A model generated the notes under the pieces. That model was not told the origin of the DNA. It searched no databases and saw nothing but the letters and a program-made list of their open reading frames with translations. This document shows, one piece after another, positions 7,995 to 44,819 of a DNA stretch of 44,819 bases. A program made the position numbers and the translations under genes. Position 1 is the stretch's first letter, and every line of letters begins with the position of its first letter. The stretch is from assembly GCF_004010195.1 (NCBI RefSeq), contig NC_057759.1:3188834-3233652 (forward strand), read 5' to 3'. This DNA comes from Chiloscyllium plagiosum. Its lineage: Eukaryota.

Positions 7995-8945
7995 GTTGCC
8001 AACATCTCCCCAGTGTGAAGTGACTGATGTAGAAATGTGGGTTGGGGGCGGGGGTTGCTCACCTGAACTCAATTCTACAGAAAGAGCATCTGAATGGACT
8101 CAGGTCTATGTAAACTTGAGGATGACATGTCAGCTCCCAAAAAGACTTGGCGAACACTTCCCACAGATTGGACATTGAAAAGTTTATCGCCAGTGTAAAT
8201 CCAAGAGTTTCTCTGTTAGCTGGATGACTGAGTGAATTATTTTCCACATTCAGCATGTAAGAAAATCCTTCCCACGATATATTCACTGGTGTTTCAGCAG
8301 GCTGGACGACCGAGTGAATATGTCTCACACTTGGCACAGGTTACCAGCCTTTCCCTAGTGTTAACTGTCCACAAATTGGTCGATTCAGTGAATCTTCGAG
8401 GAGAAAGTGAGGACTGCAGATGCTGGAGATCAGAGCCGAAAATGTGTTAAGAAGAAGGGCTCATGCCCGAAACGTCGATTCTCCTGCTCCTTGGATGCTG
8501 CCTGACCTGCTGCACTTTTCCAGCAACACATTTTCGATTCAGTGAATCCCCACACTCAGATTCTACAGTGGGTCGGGTGGTGTACAGTGAGTTCAGATAA
8601 ACGCCTGAACTCTGCCCTGCAGGGTGGACTGGTAAAAAGCCTCTCATATCTGTGAACTCACTCGTCTGTAAACAAGTGAATGAGTCAGAAAATCCCCTAT
8701 TCACACCAGGACCTAGTGAATGGCCTGTGTGAATTCATTGATTCGTCTGGAGGCTGGATGCCAAGGTGAATCTTTTCCCAAATACACAATAGATAAACGC
8801 CCTCTCCCCAGTGTGACACGCTGATGTTTTCGCAGGTTGGAGAGATTAGTAATCCCTGCCTAAATTAATCTAAATTAATCCCTTGCCACATTCAAAGTAC
8901 GAGAATGGCTTTTCCCCAGCATGAATATGCTGATGCATTTCCAGT
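7995..8945 (-). pseudogene. Decayed tandem C2H2 zinc-finger gene
   Basis: The minus strand reads LEMHQHIHAGEKPFSYFECGKG, then LSNLRKHQR/HTGERAFIYCVFGKRFTLASSLQTNQ*IHT, ...PFRCSFCRIEF and HQSLHTGE. These are repeated HTGEKPF-type linkers with lost Cys residues, stops, frameshifts and a TE insertion at 8395-8533. Confidence 0.85.
8395..8533. mobile_element. Short fold-back Penelope pLTR-derived insertion
   Basis: Minus-oriented pLTR terminus (GAGAAAGTGAGGACTGCAGATGCTGG) joined to a plus-oriented arm beginning GAAGAAGGGCTCATGCCCGAAACGTC. Exact 15-bp direct repeat TCGATTCAGTGAATC at 8380-8394 and 8534-8548. Confidence 0.88.
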
Positions 8946-8989: not shown

Positions 8990-10780
8990 TTTGAACCTTC
9001 TCAAAAGCCATTTGAAAGTCCAAAAACACAACATCTATCGATTCACGCTTGAGCTGAAAAATGTATTGCTGGAAAAGCGCAACAGGTCAGGCAGCATCCA
9101 AGGAGCAAGAGAATCGACTTCTTCATGGCTTGTCGACTCTAGTGGTCACATCTTCAAAACATTCCAGAGGATTTGTCAAGCTTGATTTATATTGAGTGTA
9201 GTCATGCTTACTTGGACTGATGCTGTCAATGCTTTTCAAATCCTCAATTATGACTTTCTTAATAATTGAGTAACATTTTCACCACCACCGATGTCAGCTC
9301 CCCGTATTCTCTTCAAAAAATTGGATTATATTATCTACCCTCCTGTCCATTGAAACTCTTCCAGACTTTTAAAACAATGAAAAATTATCAATAATGTATC
9401 TGCTTTTTCTAGAACCATTTCGTTAAGTACTCTGAGATGCAAAGCATCGGGCCCCGGGATGTTGTCAGATTTTAATCCCATCAATTTCCCCAAACCACTT
9501 CCTGAATAATAAGGATTTCCTCAGATTCCTCCATTCTTGACCCTCTGTCCTCGAACATGGATGGAAGGTTTTTTTTTTATTTTGTTCCAAGTGAAGTCAG
9601 ATTCAAACAATTTGTTTAACTGGTTCTGCCATCTTTCTGTTGTCCATTAAGAATTCACCTGATTCAAACTATCAGGGAGAAACATTTGTCAGCGGCAGTC
9701 CTTTAATCTTAACATAACCATAGAACCTTTTGCAGTCAGGTTTTTTATGTTTTCTAGAAGCTAACTTGCACACTCTGTTTCTCTTTCCAAATTAATCACT
9801 ACGTCCTCCTCTGCTGAATTTTAAATTCCTCCCAGTCCTCAGGTTTGCTGTTTTCTCTGGACAATTTAAATATGTCCTCTTTGGATTTAACACCCTCCCT
9901 GATTTCTTCTGCTAAGCATCGTTGGGGCACCATGATTTAAACTGAGCCAGACAGAAATGTGCAATTGTTAAAGTTCATCCATGCATTCTTTAAGTATCTG
10001 CTATTGCTTATCCAACACCAATCCCTTGGCCAGTTTATCCCAGCCACCATACCATCAAAGTTAGCTTTATGTTCAGGACGCTAGTTTCAGATTTAAGTGT
10101 GTCATTGTCCATATTAGTGAAGAATTCTACCATTTTGAGGTCACTCTTCCCCGAAGCATCTTGCACTAAAATGTTGCCAATTAATCCTCTTTCACTTCAC
10201 ATAGCCAGTCTGGGATGGCTTAGTCGCAGTCGGTTCCTTGACATATTGATTGAGGAAATCATATTTCATACAGTCCAAAAAATCCTCCTCCATCGCATTG
10301 GTACGAGTTTGCTTCGTCCAATTAATACGTAGATGGAGGTCATCTAAAATAACTGCTGTACATTTACTGCGTGCAATTCTAATTTCCTGTTCGAAACAAT
10401 CCTCAAAATGACAACTACTCTTTGGTGGTCTGTATACAACTCCCACTAATGTATTTTTCCTTTAAGCATTCCACTGCTCCATCCAAACAGATTGCACATC
10501 ATCCAGGCTGATGTCTTCCCTTACTGTTGTAATATCCTCCATAACTAGCAACGCTACCCCAACTACCTTTCCGTTATGTCTATCTTTACAGAAAATTGAA
10601 CAACTGCGAAAGTTGAGTTCCCACCCTTGGTCATCCTGGAGCCAGGTCTCTGTGATCTCAATTACAACATATCCATTAATAACTGTTTGCGTAGTTACTT
10701 CATCCAATTTATTACAAATGTTCCTCGCATTGAGACCCAGAACCTTGAAGTTCATTTTTTTAATGGCATTTGTTGCCCTC
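8990..10780 (-). mobile_element. CR1 LINE ORF2 fragment (APE endonuclease to start of RT)
   Basis: LNARNICNKLDE..ITETWLQDDQGWELN..GVALLV (10462..10755), GVVYRPPKS..FLNQYVKEPT (10192..10446) and a DVVFLDFQMAFEKV-like RT motif near 8995-9040. Confidence 0.88.
9051..9125 (-). mobile_element. Penelope pLTR fragment inserted in CR1
   Basis: GCTGGAAAAGCGCAACAGGTCAGGCAGCATCCAAGGAGCAAGAGAATCGAC matches the pLTR family at 8451-8533. Hammerhead stem II and GAAAC are deleted (TGAAGAA joined to GTCGATT). Confidence 0.75.
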
Positions 10781-23349: not shown

Positions 23350-23713
23350 CCCCCCCCCCCCCCCCCCCCCCCACCGTACCCCAGTTTCCACCTTCCAGCT
23401 CGGCACCGTCCTCATGACCTACCCCACCTGTTAATCTTCCTTCCCACCTATCTGCTACACCCTCCTCCCCGACCTATCACCTTTACCCCCATATCCATCC
23501 ACCTGTTGCACTCTCAGCTATCTTCTCCTAGGCCCACCCACCCCTTCAATTGAACTCTCCACACCCGTGGCTCCCAGCCTCATTCCTGATGAAGGGCTTT
23601 TGCCCATAACGTAGATATTCCTGCTCCTCGGATGCTGCTGGACCTACTGTGCTTTTCCAGCACACTCTAATCTTGGCACCAATCTCCAGCATCCGTAGTA
23701 CCACTGCTGCCTG
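23350..23713 (+). mobile_element. Penelope 3' UTR/pLTR with mutated hammerhead, preceded by poly-C
   Basis: Reverse complement of the 2180-2600 region. CTGATGA-A-GGGC-TTTT-GCCC-ATAAC-GTA at 23586-23613, with the core GAAA mutated to ATAA. Confidence 0.88.
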
Positions 23714-24230: not shown

Positions 24231-25540
24231 ACAAGAACAAAGAACAAAGAGAATGACAGCACAGGAACAATCCTTTTGGCCCTCCAAGCCTTCTCTGATC
24301 GAAGTCTTCTCTCTAAACCTGTCACATATTTTCTCAGGGTCTGTACCCACTTCCTCCCTGACCATTCATGTATTTGTTTAGATACATCCTAAATGATGTT
24401 ATAGTGCCCGACCCCACCACCCTCTGCGTAAAGAACTTTCCACCCATATCTCCTCCAAACATTTCCCCTCTCACTTTGAACTCATGACCCCTAATAATTG
24501 AATTCCCTCACTCTGGGAAAACCTCTTGCTATCTACCCTATCTATAACTTTTAGTAAGGCGTTTGATAAGTTTCCCCTTGGTACCCTCATGGAGAATGTG
24601 CATTTGCATGGGGCACAGGGTGCACTCACTTAACGGATAAAGAACTGGAGGGGCAATAGGAGATTTTGTAGGTCTTAATTCGGGTCCTCCCTCAATCTCC
24701 ATCTCTCCAATGAAAATAATCCTAATCGATTTAACCTCTCCTCATAGCTAGCACGCTCCATACGAAGCAAACTCCTGGTGAACCTTCTCTGCACGCTTTC
24801 CAAAGCATCCGTATCCTTTTGGGTAATGTGTCGACCAGAACTGTACAGTATTCCAAATATGCCAAAACCAAAGTGTGATACAACTGTAACATAACCTGCC
24901 AACCCTTGTACTCAATACCCTGCCCAATGAAGGAATGCATGCCATATGTCTTCTTAACCACTCTATTGACCTGCGTGGCCATCTTCTGGGAACAATGGAC
25001 CGGAACATCCAGATCTCTCTGTACATCAATCTTCTCCAAGACTTTTCCATTTACTGTATAGTTCGCTCTTGAATTGGATCTTCCGAAGTGCATCACCTCG
25101 CATTTGCCTGAATTGAACTCCATCTGCCATTTCTCCACTTAACTCTCGAATCTGTCTTTATTCGTCACTATCTGCGATACAACCAAACAGTGTTATCTGC
25201 AAACTTGCTAATCAGGCCACCTATACCTTTCTCCATGTCATTTATGTATATCACAAACAATAGTGGCTCTAATACGGATCCCTGTGGAACGCCAATGGTC
25301 ACTGGTCTCCATTTCGAGAAAATCATTCCCACTACTACTCTCTCTCTCCAGTTCATAATCCGTTGAGTGAGTGCACCCTGTGCCCCATGAAAATTCACAT
25401 TCTCCATGAGGGTACCAAGGGGAAACTTATCAAACGCCTTACTGAAGTCCACGTTTATGACATCTAGATCTCTTTCCTTATCAATTAACTTTGCCACTTC
25501 CTCAAATAATTCTATTAAGTTGGGAAGACATGACCTTCTC
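24231..25540 (-). mobile_element. CR1 LINE 3' 1.3 kb (RT to tail)
   Basis: VDFSKAFDK..GVPQGSVLEPLLFVIYINDM..ISKFADN (25168..25554), KWQMEFNSGKCEVMHFG (24731..25138) and an (ACAAAGA)n tail at 24231-24250. Confidence 0.95.
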
Positions 25541-29602: not shown

Positions 29603-30112
29603 GAAGCATATGATGTGTTAGCTTTTATTCGTATAAGGACTGAGTTTCTGAGCCATGAGATCATGTCGCAGCTGTACAAAATTCTGGTGCAGCCACATTT
29701 GGAATGTTGCATACATTTCTGGTAACCACGTTATAGGAAGGATGTGGAAGTTTTGTAAAGTGTTCAGATGAGATTTATTGGGTTGTTGCCTGGTATGGAA
29801 GGCAGGTCTTACGAGGAAAGGCTGAGGGACTTGAGGCTGTTTTCTCTCGAGAGAAGAAGATTGCAATGTGACTTAATTGAGTCATATAAGATAATCAGAG
29901 GATTAGACAGGTTGGACATTGAGAGTCTTTTTTTCAGATGGCAATAGCTAGCACAAGGGGACATAGCTTTAAATTGAGGTGTGATAGCTATAGGAGGTAG
30001 TTTCTTTACTCAGAAAGTAGTAGGGGTTTGGAATGCACTGCCTGCAAGAGTAGTAAACTCGCCATCTTTAAGGACATTGCAATTGTCATTGGATAGGCAT
30101 ATGAACGAGAAT

Positions 30113-30325
30113 CTGGATCAGTGGTGCTGGAAGAGCACAGCAATTCAGGCAGCATCTGACGAGCAGCAAAATCGACGTTTCGGGCAAAAACCCTTCCTGA
30201 ATTGCTGTGCTCATCGGATGCTGGCTGAATTGCTGTGCTCGTCGGATGCTGCCTGAATTGCTGTGCTCTTCCAGCACCACTGATCCAGAATCTGGTTTCC
30301 AGCATCTGAAGTCATTGTTTTACCT
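30113..30325. mobile_element. Short fold-back Penelope pLTR-derived insertion with internal 28-bp tandem repeats
   Basis: Inverted arms at about 30112-30165 and 30236-30289. Partial hammerhead on the minus strand (GAAGGGTTTTTGCCCGAAACGTCGATT). Repeats start at 30197, 30225 and 30253. Exact 14-bp TSD ATATGAACGAGAAT at 30099-30112 and 30326-30339. Confidence 0.9.
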
Positions 30326-30500
30326 ATATGAACGAGAATGCAATAGTATAGTTGAGATGGGCTTCAGATTGGTTCCACAAGTCGGTGTATCATGGAGGGC
30401 TGAAGGGCCTGTACTGCACAGTAATGTTCTATGTTCTTATAGAGAGAGGGTTGGAGCATCTGAAGATGGTTTCGGAGACTGGGAGATTTATGGGTGTTAA

Positions 30501-30764: not shown

Positions 30765-31255
30765 TGTTAACATCTGGTAGAGGTTTTAGAGATCAGGAGG
30801 GCTGGAGGTGTCTTCACAGATCTGGATGGATATGTAATATGCAGTATTCAGAGAAAGTGCGCAGAATGTGCGGAATTGGGAATGCTGGAGAGACGAGAGG
30901 ATGTTACAGAGCTGGTTAGGCACTGGAGCAAAGAAAAGTGATGGGCAGCGTTGTAGGTGTTTGAACAAGTTGTAGATATGTTGAACACTGTAGTGGCTGG
31001 AGAAGGTTATGTACATAATGAGGTTTGACGGGACAGGAGAGAAATCATGACATTGGTGGTGATGTGAATTGGTGAAGATTGCAAAGGGTGTGAGATTTCT
31101 ATTAATCGAGCAATAAGACAGAAAGGAAAAGCTGTAAGGACTTGAGAAATACGTTCTACAGAGGGGGGAATGGAGGGCTGGAGGACATTTCAAAGAAAGA
31201 AATTTTATATCGCCTGCAAGAGTTACAGAGAGATGGAGGGCAGGAAGAAACTATT

Positions 31256-32591
31256 GTCTCATTCGATGTAACGGCACTGTTCACCTCTATCGATTAAATC
31301 CTAGCCAGAGAAACAATAGCCAACCTGCTGGACATACAGAACAGACAACAAGACGGGGAACCTATCAACAAAGACTGCATACTCAAACTACTGGACCTGT
31401 GCCACACAACACACTTCACATTCAACAATCAAATATATGAACGAATCAACGGCACACCCATGGGCTCACCCATCTCTGGACTCATAGCAGAAGCGGTAAT
31501 GCAAAGATTAGAACAAACAGTCTTACCACAAATGCAACCCAAACTCTGGGTCAGATATGTAGCTGACACCTTTGTAATCATTAAAAACACAGAAATAGAA
31601 AACACACACCGGATCATCAAAGCCACACTCACAGGAAGCAGATTCACAAGAGAGGAAGAAAAGGAAAACCAACTCCCATTCCTTGAGGTGATGGTACAGA
31701 GAAAACCGAACGGAGAATTCATCACAAAGGTATACAGGAAAACCACACACACAGACCCAAGTCCTGAACTACGAAAGCAACCACTCCAACACACTCAAAA
31801 GAAGTTGCATCAAGACACTGTTCAAAAGAGCCACAACACACTGCAGCACACCAGCACTGCAAAAACAGGAAGAAGAACACCTCTACAATGTATTCACCAA
31901 AAACGGATACCCCCGCAATTTCATCAACAGATGCCTAAGGGAAAGACAACAGAATGAGGACATGCCACAACCCAAAGGATGAGCCACCTTACCATACATC
32001 AAGAACATTTCTGAACTGACAGCCAGACTACTACGACTACTCATAACAGCACACAAACCAACAGCCACTCTCAGACAACAACTCACCAGGACAAAGGACC
32101 CGATACCCAGCATGAGCAAAACCAACGAGGTGTACAAAATCCCATGCAAGGACTGGAACAAAACACTACATAGGACAAACAGGAAGACAGCTAACGATCA
32201 GCTTCCATGAACACCAACTAGCCACGAAACGACACGACCAGCTATCCTTAGTAGCCACACACACAGATGATAAGTAACATGAGTTTCACTGGGACAACAC
32301 TATTATTATAGGACAAGCCAAACAGAGAAGAGCCAGGGAATTCCTCGAGGCATGGCACTCATCCACAGATTATATCAACAAACACATCAACCTGGACCCA
32401 ATATACCGGCCACTACAGCGGACAGCTGGAACTGACAACGGAAGCGACACAGACAAACCACTATCAATGCCGGAGGAAACATCACAGAAGCGCTTCACAG
32501 GAGGCTCCCTAGCACTGAGGATGTCACCTAGACAGGGGACGAAACGTCTGCAACACAACTTCCCAGCTCGGCGAACAGAACCACAACAACA
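31256..32591 (+). mobile_element. Penelope-like element (Poseidon-type), 5'-truncated, RT + GIY-YIG + pLTR
   Basis: VSFDVTALFTSID, GTPMGSPISGLIAEAVMQRLE, WVRYVADTF (YVDD mutated), ENQLPFLEV, VYRKTTHTD, VYKIPCKD..HYIGQTGR and AREFLEAWHS..INKHINLDPIY. Frameshifted. Confidence 0.95.
32512..32551 (+). ncRNA. Minimal type I hammerhead ribozyme motif (PLE pLTR)
   Basis: GCA-CUGAGGA-U-GUC-A-CCU-AGAC-AGG-G-GAC-GAAA-C-GUC-UGC. It has an intact CUGANGA/GAAA/GUC core, stem I GCA:UGC, stem II and a palindromic ACGU in place of stem III. Predicted cut after C32548. Confidence 0.8.
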
Positions 32592-38399: not shown

Positions 38400-39110
38400 C
38401 CTATCTCTGTTATGAAAATCATCTGGGAGAATGCTACCGCTCTCTGTAACATGTGCTGCAGGGTTTAAAATTCTGCCGATCTTCGTGTGCTCCTCCAGTA
38501 CCTACAACTGCTCCTGTCTCTGCAACCTCGTCCCACACACTGAAACCTCTTCCGACACGACATTCCCTGCCTCAGTTACATTTTGTGGCTTCTACGAACC
38601 ATCCTGTCTGTGGTATCCTCTTTACTTCATCAGCCCTCGCTATCTCTGCAACTTCCACCAGCCTCCATAATCATCTTTACCTTTATAAACTACTCCAATC
38701 CCTCCAGTACCCTTTCTCTATACACCCCTCCAATCCCTATGTCGCTCCCCAACTATTGAGCGTGTTTCAATTCCGACAAACTGTGCCAGTCTGCAGCTCT
38801 ATGACCCACTCCCGCCCCAGATCATACACGTCTCCCTATCATATACTAATGTGCGAACCTCTCCAGCAACTACAACATTGCATTTCTCAGTTTACTCCTC
38901 TACTCCCGACAGCCATCCCATTCTTTGTAAACGTGCACCTCAAACCCTTTCCCTTTGTGTAATTTACTCCTTCCCTTTTTAAACTGCCCCAAACCTTCCA
39001 AACTACTCCATCTCTATACACTACTGCAGCTCCTACAGTCCCAAACTACCCTTAAACTGCAGAGAACCTATCAACCTTCCTAACTGTGTAATCACTTTAG
39101 GCCCCTGCAA
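38400..39110 (+). repeat. Degenerate C/T-rich tandem repeat (CTATCTCTGYAACCTCCTCCAG-like units), possibly L2-derived
   Basis: Recurring variants such as CCTATCTCTG, CTGTCTCTGCAACCTCG, CTATCTCTGCAACTTCCACCAG and CCTCTCCAGCAACTACAAC at roughly 35-bp spacing. Confidence 0.55.
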
Positions 39111-39197
39111 CATTCTCGATCTTCAATGTTTGTGAGAAGATTTGTAGCTCGGTTGCTCGTTGTTGTGGTTCTGTTCGCCGAGCTGGGAATTTGTGTT

Positions 39198-39237
39198 GCA
39201 GACGTTTCGTCCCCTGTCTAGGTGACATCCTCAGTGC
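39198..39237 (-). ncRNA. Minimal type I hammerhead ribozyme motif
   Basis: The reverse complement is identical to 32512-32551. Predicted cleavage C is at 39201. Confidence 0.8.
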
Positions 39238-39592
39238 TTGGGAACCTTCTGTGAAGCGCTTCTGTGATGTTTCGTCCGGCATTTATAGTGGTTTGAAACT
39301 GCCGCTTCCGGTTGTCAGTTCCAGCTGTCTGCTGCAGTGGCCGATATATTGGGTCCAGGTCGATGTGTTTGTTGATATAATCTGTGGATGAGTGCCGTGC
39401 CTCAGAGAACAGCCAGGGAATTCCTCGAGGCATGGCACTCATCCACAGATTATATCAACAAACACATCGACCTGGACCCAATATACCGGTCACTACAGCG
39501 GGCAGCTGGAATTGACAACCGGAAGCGGCAGTTTCAAACCGCTATAAATGTCGGAGGAAACATCACAGAAGCGCTTAACAGGAGGCTCCCAA

Positions 39593-39632
39593 GCACTGAG
39601 GATGTCACCTAGACAGGGGACGAAACGTCTGC
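39593..39632 (+). ncRNA. Minimal type I hammerhead ribozyme motif
   Basis: Identical to 32512-32551. Predicted cut after C39629. Confidence 0.8.
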
Positions 39633-39699
39633 AACACAAATTCCCAGCTCGGCGAACAGAACCACAACATTCTCGATCTGTGGAACGTTTTACAATATC

Positions 39700-41600
39700 T
39701 GCGACTCTCCCATTCCAGTTCCCCCAAGACTCACCATCTACGTAACAGCGTCCCGTCGCTATCACTGACCCTGTCAATGTAAGCTCCTCCATCTATCTTG
39801 CCAGCATACCCTGGATCGCTTGGTAATTTACCTTCTCAGTTTCCCACGTGAAAACTTGTCAAAAGACCTTACTTAAATCTACGTAAAGTGCAAACAATGA
39901 CCTACCCAAAAGCAAACATTCCATCACCTTCTGGAAAATTTGTGCTAGACTTGTTAGACAGGACCATCCCCTAGTATAGACAAATGACTAAACCTTACTC
40001 TTCTATAAACTTCGCTGTTCTTCTCACTCCCTCTTTCCTTGTCATCCAGTCCTGAATATTCCAAGGCATCAATAGGTATCTGGGCTTGTTGTTTCGAAAT
40101 TATATCCCAAAGGGAACATGTTGGGCCTATAATTCTAACCGTACATTTTTGAGTAGCTCCACTCTTTCTCTCTAGATTTAACCTCAAGTAGCTATTTCTG
40201 ATCTTATTTTTTTGGCCAGAACTTGCCTTTCTTTTTCAATTTAGCTTACTCCAATACAAAACTCTTTCTTGCAGACCAATTTTACCCTTTTCCATGTCAT
40301 AGTATTGTGATCACTACCAATAACGTTCTCCCTTACTGTCATGTCCAAAGTCTGTACAGCTCCATTCCCAAGATTTACATCCAAACTGTATTGTTCCTTG
40401 TAGGAAAACCTGCATGAAAGATTCTCAGTTATGTAAGGCTGCCCCTCTAAACCCTTTCTACTGCTAAGACCGTAATTAATGTTGGGGGAAAAAGAAAAAA
40501 AAATCCCATATAATTACCGAATTTGCAATTGAAAACATATTATAAATTGACTGCATTTATGATCCTCAACTGCCACTGGCTGTTAAGGGCCTACAATATA
40601 CTCCTACCCGTGTGACTGCCGCTTTTGATGGTAATTCCATAAATTCCCCTCCTTACTGCAGTACCTGTTACCATAACTAATAATGCGATGCAACCTCTGT
40701 GTTTGTACTCTTCTCTGTTTTGGCTGGTGACCCTGTATGCTGGTGTATAAAGCTGCTGGGGCGTCATTTCCTCAAGCAGGTCTCTGTGATGGCAGAAACT
40801 ATTGAAGTTCCCTGTGTCAGTCTATGCTCTTAACCAATCTGCTTTAGCTCTAATATTTCTGACATCCAACCACGCCTTGCACGATTGAGACATGACAATC
40901 GTAAACCTGCTTTGCCTTGGTTCATTTACCATATTATGTTGCGCTTTTATTGAGCTAATTTTGTTTGAACTCTGTTGAAACACGTGAAACTCCTCGCAAC
41001 AGCACATGTCCTACCTGTTAATTGATCACATTCGGATTCGGGATTTCTGGTGTGCGTGGAGAGACCCCACCTTCGCCAGAAATGATGCATGTGGTCCAGA
41101 AGCAAAATCTTCCCAATTCTTCGGCCAATCGTCCATCTGCTGTATTCACCTGTTTCTGTGCTCATTAGCCCATGGCATTGTGCATAAGCTTGAGATTATA
41201 ACCTTCAAAGTCTTACTTATTGATATTGTAGATACCCGTACTGGTTATGCAAGGCCTTATCCCTATTACTAGCTATGTCACTAATCCGAATGTCTGCCTT
41301 ATTATCGTTTCTCTTCAAGATGCAATGCAACCGGCCAGTAGCATCAGGGAGACAACATACCACCTTGGAAAATTGCCTGCGGCTACAGAAGCGCCGATCT
41401 TAACTGATGAATCGCGTATCACCATTGATCCATCCTTCTTGTTTCCTTCTTTCAGTAAGACCAGCCCGTTTTGGATGCAAGAAGGATAATCCTCACTGCA
41501 TTTTCTAGACGTGCCAACCCACTCCTAAATTCCAGAACAGAAAACCGACTTGTGAGTGGGGCCACAGGAGTCTTCTGTACTGTATACTGTTTCTCTTTCA
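39700..41600 (-). mobile_element. Very old CR1 remnant (ORF1 through RT pieces)
   Basis: Reverse-strand YVDLSKVF*Q near 39855-39885, an endonuclease-like ITETCLR near 40770-40790, and ORF1-like FPRWYVVSLML near 41340-41375. Confidence 0.5.
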
Positions 41601-43543: not shown

Positions 43544-43996
43544 CATTTCCTCTGGTTGGAATGCCATGCTTCCAGTAATACTTGTGCATATCTCTGTTTG
43601 GCTTGACCTAGGATGGATTTGTTGTCCCAGTCGAAGTGGTGTCCTTCCTCATCCATATGTAAGGATACTAGTGAGAGTGGGTCATGTCGTTTTGTGGCTA
43701 GTTGATGTTCATTTATCCTATCAACAAACACATTGACTTGGATCCCATTTACCACACCCTGCGAAAAAGAATAGGAAATAACATCACCATAGGAAATGAC
43801 GTCGCCGCATGAAATAACATCACCAACCCTAGGAAACTCAAACATATACATGTAAATACAAAGTGGGCTACGCCACCAGTGCTTCGTTCGGCGACTCACT
43901 GAGTATGATGACAAAATGTCTGAGAGCGAAACTTCCAGCTCAGCGAGCAAACCTACATCCAAAACCTCAACCTGAGGTATAAATCTTCTCAAAACT
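43544..43996. mobile_element. Poseidon-type Penelope 3' end with a 5' inversion and decayed hammerhead
   Basis: Minus strand 43544-43715 encodes INEHQLATKRHDPLSLVS..HHFDWDN..LLEAWHSN. The continuation (INKHIDLDPIYH) and the pLTR run on the plus strand at 43716-43996. Hammerhead remnant CTCA-CTGA..GAC-AAAA-T-GTC-TGAG at 43895-43924. Confidence 0.88.
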
Positions 43997-44151
43997 AGTT
44001 AAATTTTAATTTCATAACAATATTGATTGAAACGTTTTTTCAGTGGACTTTTGCTAATTTTTGTTGTACATAAGGTGTTTTTAAAAGCATTTGAAGGAGT
44101 CGACAGGGCACTGAGATTTTCTGACATTACCTGTTTCACAACAGAATGGTC

Positions 44152-44430
44152 TAGAACATAGAACATAGAACATAGAAGAATACAGCGCAGTACAGGCCCT
44201 TCGGCCCTCGATGTTGCGCCGATCCAAGCCCACCTAACCTACACTAGCCCACTATCCTCCATATGCCTATCCAATGCCCGCTTAAATGCCCATAATGAGG
44301 GAGAGTCCACCACTGCTATTGGCAGGGCATTCCATGAACTCACGACTCACTGAGTAAAGAACTTACCCCTAACATCTGTCCTATACCTAACCCCCCCCCC
44401 CCCCCTTAATTTAAAGCTATGCCCCCTTGT
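44152..44430 (-). mobile_element. CR1 LINE 3' end, apparently young
   Basis: Perfect (TAGAACA)n tail, CAGGCCCTTCGGCCC stem-loop, and reverse-strand RGHSFKL and WNALP motifs. Confidence 0.9.
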
Positions 44431-44433
44431 TAA

Positions 44434-44819
44434 TCTCTGCACAGTATCTCTCAAAGAAAGCTGCTCTCTGCACAGTATCTCTCTCAGAAAGCTGCTCTCT
44501 GCACAGTATCTCTCTCAGAAAGCTGCTCTCTGCACAGTATCTCTCTCAGAAAGCTGCTCTCTGCACAGTATCTCTCTCAGAAAGCTGCTCTCTGCACAGT
44601 ATCTCTCTCAGAAAGCTGCTCTCTGCACAGTATCTCTCTCAGAAAGCTGCTCTCTGCACAGTATCTCTCTCAGAAAGCTGCTCTCTGCACAGTATCTCTC
44701 TCAGAAAGCTGCTCTCTGCACAGTATCTCTCTCAGAAAGCTGCTCTCTGCACAGTATCTCTCTCAGAAAGCTGCTCTCTGCACAGTATCTCTCTCAGAAA
44801 GCTGCTCTCTGTACAGTAT
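44434..44819. repeat. 31-bp minisatellite (TCTCTGCACAGTATCTCTCTCAGAAAGCTGC)n, about 12.5 copies, runs off right edge
   Basis: GCACAG recurs at 44439, 44470, 44501 and so on. Units are identical except the first (CTCAAAG) and last (GTACAG). Confidence 0.97.

Follow-up and report, generated by a model that had tools for sequence, protein, structure and literature searches.

The stretch analysed here, hereafter the window, comprises 44,819 nucleotides of Chiloscyllium plagiosum and contains, at 39108-39679, a short insertion built of two inverted arms with a hammerhead motif on either strand. The question raised by this locus is whether such a structure moves as a unit, acts as a source of double-stranded RNA or is what a single insertion event left behind. 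A first-pass annotation, made from the letters alone, had proposed the former two possibilities. Our analysis indicates that the locus is, in all likelihood, one dead-on-arrival insertion of an EN+ Penelope/Poseidon-type retroelement.

The insertion is bounded by an exact direct repeat of 15 bp that cannot be extended, and at ≤2 mismatches the 15-mer has 2 matches within the window against a shuffle mean of 0.12. The right TSD copy and the right arm overlap by 5 nt, the first 5 of the repeat being the last 5 of the arm; both the repeat (15/15) and this overlap had been reported by the first-pass annotation and were borne out. The inverted arms (39161-39403 and 39427-39669) are 243 nt each and differ by 13 mismatches, all of which (13/13) fall in the inner 160 nt and none (0/13) in the outer 83 nt, so that the alignment reproduced the arm geometry described earlier. 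The whole element was folded into a single hairpin (−493 kcal/mol, z = −46.6). The left copy, on the minus strand, continues for 38 nt beyond its arm, to 39123; this segment (39123-39160), overlooked in the earlier reading, is the PLE tail of the left copy and no filler. The right copy, on the plus strand, starts at 39404 and not at 39427. The nucleotides 39404-39426, previously taken for a spacer between the arms, are its own 5' sequence, colinear with a neighbouring copy of the same family from 32323 onwards. By blastn, the right copy is identical to neighbour 32323-32588 at 250 of 267 positions, while the left copy (39161-39403) is 93% identical to neighbour 32347-32590. At 39403/39404 two 5'-truncated copies meet head to head (5'-5'), with 1 nt fitting either; in the blastn comparison of the element with the neighbour, the minus match ends and the plus match starts at 39403. 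The junction 18-mer occurs once within the window, and the left copy begins in the middle of a palindrome of 8 nt, located at 39423-39430 in the right copy. The sequence private to each copy consists of the 38-nt tail (left) and 23 extra 5' nt (right). A simple self-primed fold-back of a single cDNA was considered and rejected, as either copy has sequence absent from the other.

Table 1. Coordinates of the insertion, its parts and the neighbouring copy (positions in the window).
Feature	Position	Strand	Basis or remark
Left TSD copy	39108..39122		Exact repeat of 39665-39679; 10 bp unambiguous and 5 bp also matching the element end
PLE tail, 38 nt, left copy only	39123..39160	-	Encodes the onward ORF N-terminus; ORF translation match; loose ends of the family at 39122
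Left 5'-truncated PLE end copy	39161..39403	-	Endonuclease C-terminus, hammerhead, ORF start
Left minimal type I hammerhead	39198..39237	-	Mirror of 39593-39632, identical to the right-arm motif
Head-to-head junction	39403..39404		blastn against the neighbour
Right 5'-truncated PLE end copy	39404..39669	+	23 nt longer 5' than the left copy; ends at the tail-less terminus
Right minimal type I hammerhead	39593..39632	+	Motif anatomy; cleavage predicted after C39629
Right TSD copy	39665..39679		First 5 nt common to the right copy's end
Neighbour copy, same family	31244..32590	+	5'-truncated, frameshifted, without tail; outgroup in the arm comparison

The insertion had been called non-coding, a description that its arms do not support, as they are ORF-derived and comprise the last 68 codons of the endonuclease end together with the first codons of an ORF. 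The translation of 39406-39609 is identical to the C-terminus of P0002 at 57 of 68 residues, and that of 39124-39228(-) to residues 19-53 of P0003 at 33 of 35. Both proteins are named from Chiloscyllium punctatum, and proteins of this species are also the closest matches of the neighbour's RT (84-89%, among 59 hits). The neighbour contains RT motifs (RVT_1, E = 6.4e-6), a GIY-YIG end, a hammerhead, stops and frameshifts, and a candidate 7-bp TSD; in tblastn it is colinear, across three frames, with the RT and GIY-YIG proteins P0009, P0010 and P0014. In P0009, RVT_1 is followed by GIY-YIG, both slightly below the Pfam cut-offs (29.3/29.6 and 22.2/22.6), and in the related protein P0023 both domains exceed them. 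Neither a tail nor an inverted copy was found at the neighbour (31244-32590), and no Cys cluster was seen by eye in its linker. The earlier reading had placed the parent family at 31256-32591: this copy (about 31244-32590) is indeed a relative, but, being truncated and frameshifted, no working parent. It was also rejected as the direct template, having no tail and departing from either arm at shared sites. Judged by its sequence, the insertion has the set of features that defines EN+ PLEs, i.e., an RT/GIY-YIG ORF, a min-HHR, an inverted truncated copy, a one-sided tail and a TSD. The PLE origin and inverted pLTR structure suggested at first pass are thus supported by the ORF matches and the 39403/39404 junction. 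A metagenome scan with P0002 gave 76 pattern matches, none of them confirmed. The promoter/terminator scan returned 0 sites and was disregarded, as its model is bacterial.

The presence of a hammerhead core in both arms, on opposite strands, was confirmed, and the two motifs are identical. In the right-arm motif, helix I has 3 bp, the core is intact, a single unpaired U precedes helix II, helix II spans 7 positions with one A.G mismatch, and helix III is a palindrome without a loop. Both the ORF start codon (39602) and the stop of the preceding ORF (39610-39612) lie inside it. The start codon is located upstream of that stop (39602-39612), so the ORF end, the ribozyme and the ORF start would overlap in a tandem array. 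The hammerhead call was based on motif anatomy compared with the features given in PMC4209133, not on Rfam. The Rfam search of the whole window at gathering score gave 0 hits, with no hammerhead, and at E ≤ 10 in 39000-39800 no hammerhead was present among 8 hits; these, 7 to models of miRNA hairpins at scores well under the gathering thresholds and 1 to a fragment of an lncRNA, were rejected as generic hairpin matches. Common to this copy and the metazoan PLE min-HHRs described there are the intact core, the unpaired nucleotide before helix II, G10.1-C11.1, the long helix II and the palindromic loop-less helix III, whereas this copy differs in belonging to a shark family, in its 3-bp helix I and in having a cleavage site that is predicted only (PMC4209133). 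Folding of a single arm by MFE did not yield the hammerhead (z about 0). This is expected because the motif is of the dimer type, and folding energy was left out as ribozyme evidence because single-arm MFE misses such a fold. The metagenome scan with the ribozyme stretch gave 0 matches. In a read-through of either strand, the antisense arm would come first and the ribozyme would thereby be buried: in the folding model of a read-through transcript the core paired to the antisense arm with a mean of 0.9997, which supports the self-masking postulated earlier. By analogy with characterised motifs, this masking would need no purpose: PLE min-HHRs of this kind did not cleave as monomers and did so only weakly as same-sense dimers (PMC4209133), and either strand of the insertion carries a single sense copy. 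The same paper links dual min-HHRs on opposite strands, 100-700 bp apart, to truncated PLEs.

The family context was derived from 4 of the 24 sequencing runs listed, namely X1 and X4 (organism A, DNA), X9 (organism B, a second species; DNA) and X21 (organism A, RNA), mapped to 38800-39450; this stretch covers the left flank, tail, left arm and junction, with the right flank outside it. The summed word depth was about 1e6 for the element and about 20 for the flank, and while these values give no copy number, the PLE family is clearly very abundant in the genome. Among the 18 of 872 loose ends listed, ends pile up at 39122 (73, 97 and 110 contigs) and at the mirror position 39161 (90, 139 and 149 contigs), and the flanks at these ends are unrelated and AT-rich (consensus agreement 0.35-0.37). 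Both outer ends of the element are the two standard termini of the family, 38 nt apart. In organism B, a contig of 735 nt matches 38800-39122, breaks off precisely at the end of the left TSD and goes on for 392 unaligned letters; organism B thus seems to have the empty site, as judged from the stop of the alignment. The organism A runs have a hole at 38976-39107 and are uninformative on whether those individuals carry the insertion. Within the window, no relatives of the flanks spanning an empty site were found by blastn, tblastx or tblastn. The flanks resemble what we take to be an old CR1/L2-type LINE.

With the neighbour as outgroup, 7 of the differences map to the left arm and the other 6 to the right arm. 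In both organism A runs, 88-99.9% of the family depth disagrees with six of the 7 letters of the left arm; the remaining one (39335) is absent from the rows listed and may be a family polymorphism. Two letters of the tail also differ from 84-99% of the family depth in the organism A runs. When read in the endonuclease frame, the arm differences comprise 10 non-synonymous and 3 synonymous changes, the neutral expectation being 23-30% synonymous, and their pattern looks like neutral decay after insertion at about 2.7% per site. The flank diverges by 9% between the two species (29 substitutions over 323 nt), which leaves room for 2.7% of arm decay. Variation among functional masters was rejected as the source of the differences, as these are mostly non-synonymous. 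The first-pass annotation had described the mismatches as non-uniform along the arms. With the end fixed beforehand, the mismatch-free outer 83 nt have P = 0.0035, but the 83-nt boundary was chosen after the mismatches had been seen, and a gap that long anywhere in the arm is marginal (P = 0.052, or 0.049 with CpG weighting; KS P = 0.07). The comparison of the outer part, tail and TSDs with the inner part gave P = 0.03 in Fisher's test, and a mismatch-free ribozyme alone P = 0.06-0.07. The conservation of the outer end is marginal and suggestive at most. Both arms have minority family letters in common (39296-39298 and 39378), and both copies probably stem from one source within one small lineage. 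The neighbour (32346, 32372) and the fold-back (39426, 39452, 39378) also have two linked letters in common; in the organism A runs these make up at most 0.3-2% of the family word depth. A rare lineage thus has two members 7 kb apart, and this could reflect a local burst, conversion or a population unlike the runs.

In the scenario that we favour, the enzyme would have made a staggered double-strand cut, 10-15 nt apart, and reverse transcription would have been primed from both exposed 3' ends. The outer RT start site would have given rise to one cDNA, and with it to the 38-nt tail; the inner RT start site would have served for the other, presumably aided by the 5-nt primer-template match. Both would have stopped after about 270-280 nt and been joined end to end over 1 nt, and the arms would then have decayed neutrally. 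We infer the two priming events, the order of the steps and the lack of later movement of the locus. A hammerhead would be expected in each copy, given a distance of 40-110 nt between the ribozyme and the RT start sites. Neither copy can have served as the template of the other because each has sequence absent from its partner, and for this reason the insertion lends in vivo support to the model that the PLE enzyme primes at two fixed start sites of the RNA, using both ends of the target.

This scenario is in line with in vitro data on Poseidon of Anolis carolinensis (PAc), for which PMC11167929 reports cutting and extension of both target strands, two RT start sites that bracket the tail, and an ORF start within hammerhead stem II. 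The element shares with PAc the ORF start in stem II (here ATG 39602), the two termini bracketing the tail, AT-rich targets and, probably, the extension of both target strands (PMC11167929). In contrast to PAc, which is reported to start at a site without homology to the cut DNA, the tail-less end here matches the target by 5 nt; the termini here lie 68 and 106 nt after the ATG. Typical of PLE insertions are a 5'-truncated copy in inverted orientation and, at one end, a tail of 30-40 bp (PMC8557442); rotifer copies have head-to-head inverted pLTRs, 8-10-bp TSDs and a 31-bp tail (PMC3846280). The insertion resembles these canonical EN+ PLE complex insertions (PMC8557442; PMC3846280) in its head-to-head inverted copy, one-sided tail, short TSD, unequal 5' truncation and palindrome near the junction. 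It differs in that both copies are only about 270-280 nt long, without an ORF body between them, and in that its TSD of 10-15 bp is somewhat longer than the 8-10 bp of the rotifer examples (PMC3846280). Already in the literature are the inverted copy, the tail at one end, hammerhead pairs on opposite strands and siRNAs derived from inverted Penelope repeats. A search of mostly open-access literature found no paper that combines Penelope, shark, inverted and hammerhead. So read, the insertion is a clean example of a known PLE footprint, very abundant in this genome, and matters little.

A very unlikely alternative accepts the same origin as a dead insertion and adds that the locus is read through, serving as a source of hairpin endo-siRNAs or as an A-to-I substrate directed against the family. 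A transcript of either strand would form a near-perfect 243-bp hairpin, and RNA of the family is present in X21 (493 reads, 16 of them at ≥99%). There is also a precedent: Drosophila siRNAs match inverted regions of rearranged Penelope copies (PMC3681739), and the siRNA-producing rearrangements (PMC3681739; PMC3136932) resemble the present locus, whose long inverted repeat would likewise yield dsRNA on read-through. The proposal of a dsRNA/small-RNA source made at first pass is to that extent conceivable, but X21 gave no sign of transcription of the locus and, unlike the Drosophila case, no locus-specific reads. The depth was zero on all 14 unique-flank bins, and the locus letter was carried by 0 of 145 reads at 39274, 0 of 16 at 39397 and 0 of 40 at 39378. 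The numbers of A>G and T>C sites (9 and 14) were similar to those of the DNA runs (8-11 and 6-10). RNA mapping, recommended in the earlier reading with A-to-I editing in mind, therefore returned neither locus letters at these three sites nor an excess of A-to-I-type changes. The negative is weak, as X21 is one polyA single-cell run of a different individual, of which about 2% was read, and does not cover small RNA. On either side of the junction the X21 reads favoured one and the same strand of the element, most likely the sense strand, and read ends did not pile up anywhere along 38800-39450. Even if the alternative held, this hairpin would be one among a great many of its kind.

It has also been considered that the fold-back was transcribed whole and re-inserted in trans by the PLE enzyme, with the junction kept and the outer ends maintained as selected cis signals. 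The identical outer 83 nt cover the ribozyme and the inner RT start, and in rotifers a sequence lying between pLTRs can be mobilised in trans (PMC3846280). Among the 15 of 44 joints listed, 6 change strand and 5 land at 39403-39427, making up 11 head-to-head junctions with 11 different position pairs; the other 4 are skips within the arm. One of these junctions, 39206/39334, found at other loci, reached a depth of 1105 in X9, i.e., about 45x the flank depth in organism B (1105 vs 24), and was also detected in both organism A runs (45 in X1 and 22 in X4), so it may be multi-copy. Passive duplication inside a larger repeat would explain this depth equally well. The ten other inverted junctions listed, all different, had word depths of 5-125 against a flank depth of about 4-27. 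At the locus itself, the 39403/39404 junction was spanned by 0 of the 24 pieces listed (of 56,602), and the left-arm letter 39397, 7 nt from the junction, retained a depth of 19 in X4 and 113 in X1. This is near single-locus depth and points to little or no amplification after the letter arose. The two divergent letters of the tail, which is also a cis region, argue against selection on the outer ends, and the 243-bp hairpin would bury the RT start sites. Movement of this fold-back as a unit is thus highly improbable, and we give very little credence to the broader proposal that fold-back PLE stubs of the shark lineage, this locus included, can be re-mobilised whole as palindromic non-autonomous retroelements, for which the 39206/39334 junction, found in both species, gives the best hint. 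Were fold-backs to move as units, they would represent a kind of palindromic non-autonomous retroelement not found described in the literature searched, and the PLE enzyme would be able to use self-paired RNA. Among the strand-changing joints, one of the 6 listed (39201/39321) has an arm end ≤1 nt from the mirror of the cleavage site 39629.

The retrozyme-like unit postulated at first pass did not hold up, as the ribozymes are on opposite strands, each transcript has one sense copy and the structure is the standard PLE footprint. Non-LTR retrozymes consist of tandem same-strand units (PMC7229834; bioRxiv 10.64898/2026.07.22.740005), and the element is not one of them, as it has no tandem same-strand ribozymes. 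It resembles them in being short, hammerhead-bearing, PLE-related and without an intact ORF. In retrozymes, the head-to-tail, same-strand ribozymes release unit-length and circular RNA (same sources), whereas the element studied here, with one ribozyme per strand, cannot release a unit. Retrozyme hammerheads are also mostly of the canonical type I with a looped helix III, in contrast to the loop-less palindromic helix III found here (PMC7229834, PMC4209133).

Inverted repeats can correct each other, and the mismatch-free tract would fit a one-off insertion whose outer arms were later homogenised to 83 identical nucleotides by intrastrand template switching or gene conversion. This is the least probable of the explanations, as conversion would carry over changes private to the donor, of which there were none (at 2.7% per site, such an absence has a chance of about 0.10), and among the rows listed, which leave out 115 weaker ones, none falls in 39161-39243, so that both arms appear to equal the family majority there.

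Consistently with a dead-on-arrival PLE insertion, two elements of a second hammerhead-type family serve as in-window controls and share the build of the 39108-39679 insertion. The first (30099-30339) is a head-to-head fold-back with inverted arms and an exact 14-bp TSD. The second (8380-8548) has an exact 15-bp TSD, a very short inverted copy and a tail or extension on the left, and its tail-less right end overlaps the right TSD by 3 nt. At 30099-30339, an extension of about 35 nt is present on the right side only, and the right copy contains short internal tandem duplications. Further fragments of the second family lie at 2180-2390, 9058-9131 and 23580-23710, one of them as a partial tandem; a TSD search at these fragments (near 2.2, 9.0 and 23.6 kb) yielded no convincing duplication. 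An older, more diverged inverted pair of a related PLE family occupies 43552-44010, its minus-strand member being a GIY-YIG fragment and its plus-strand member a decayed end with hammerhead and tail. A tandem repeat of near-identical units with a 31-nt period (44372-44805) reaches the end of the window. Finally, an inverted repeat of 101 nt (24550-24650 and 25346-25446), 94% complementary and with its halves 695 nt apart, lies in LINE-like sequence and is possibly an inversion junction.
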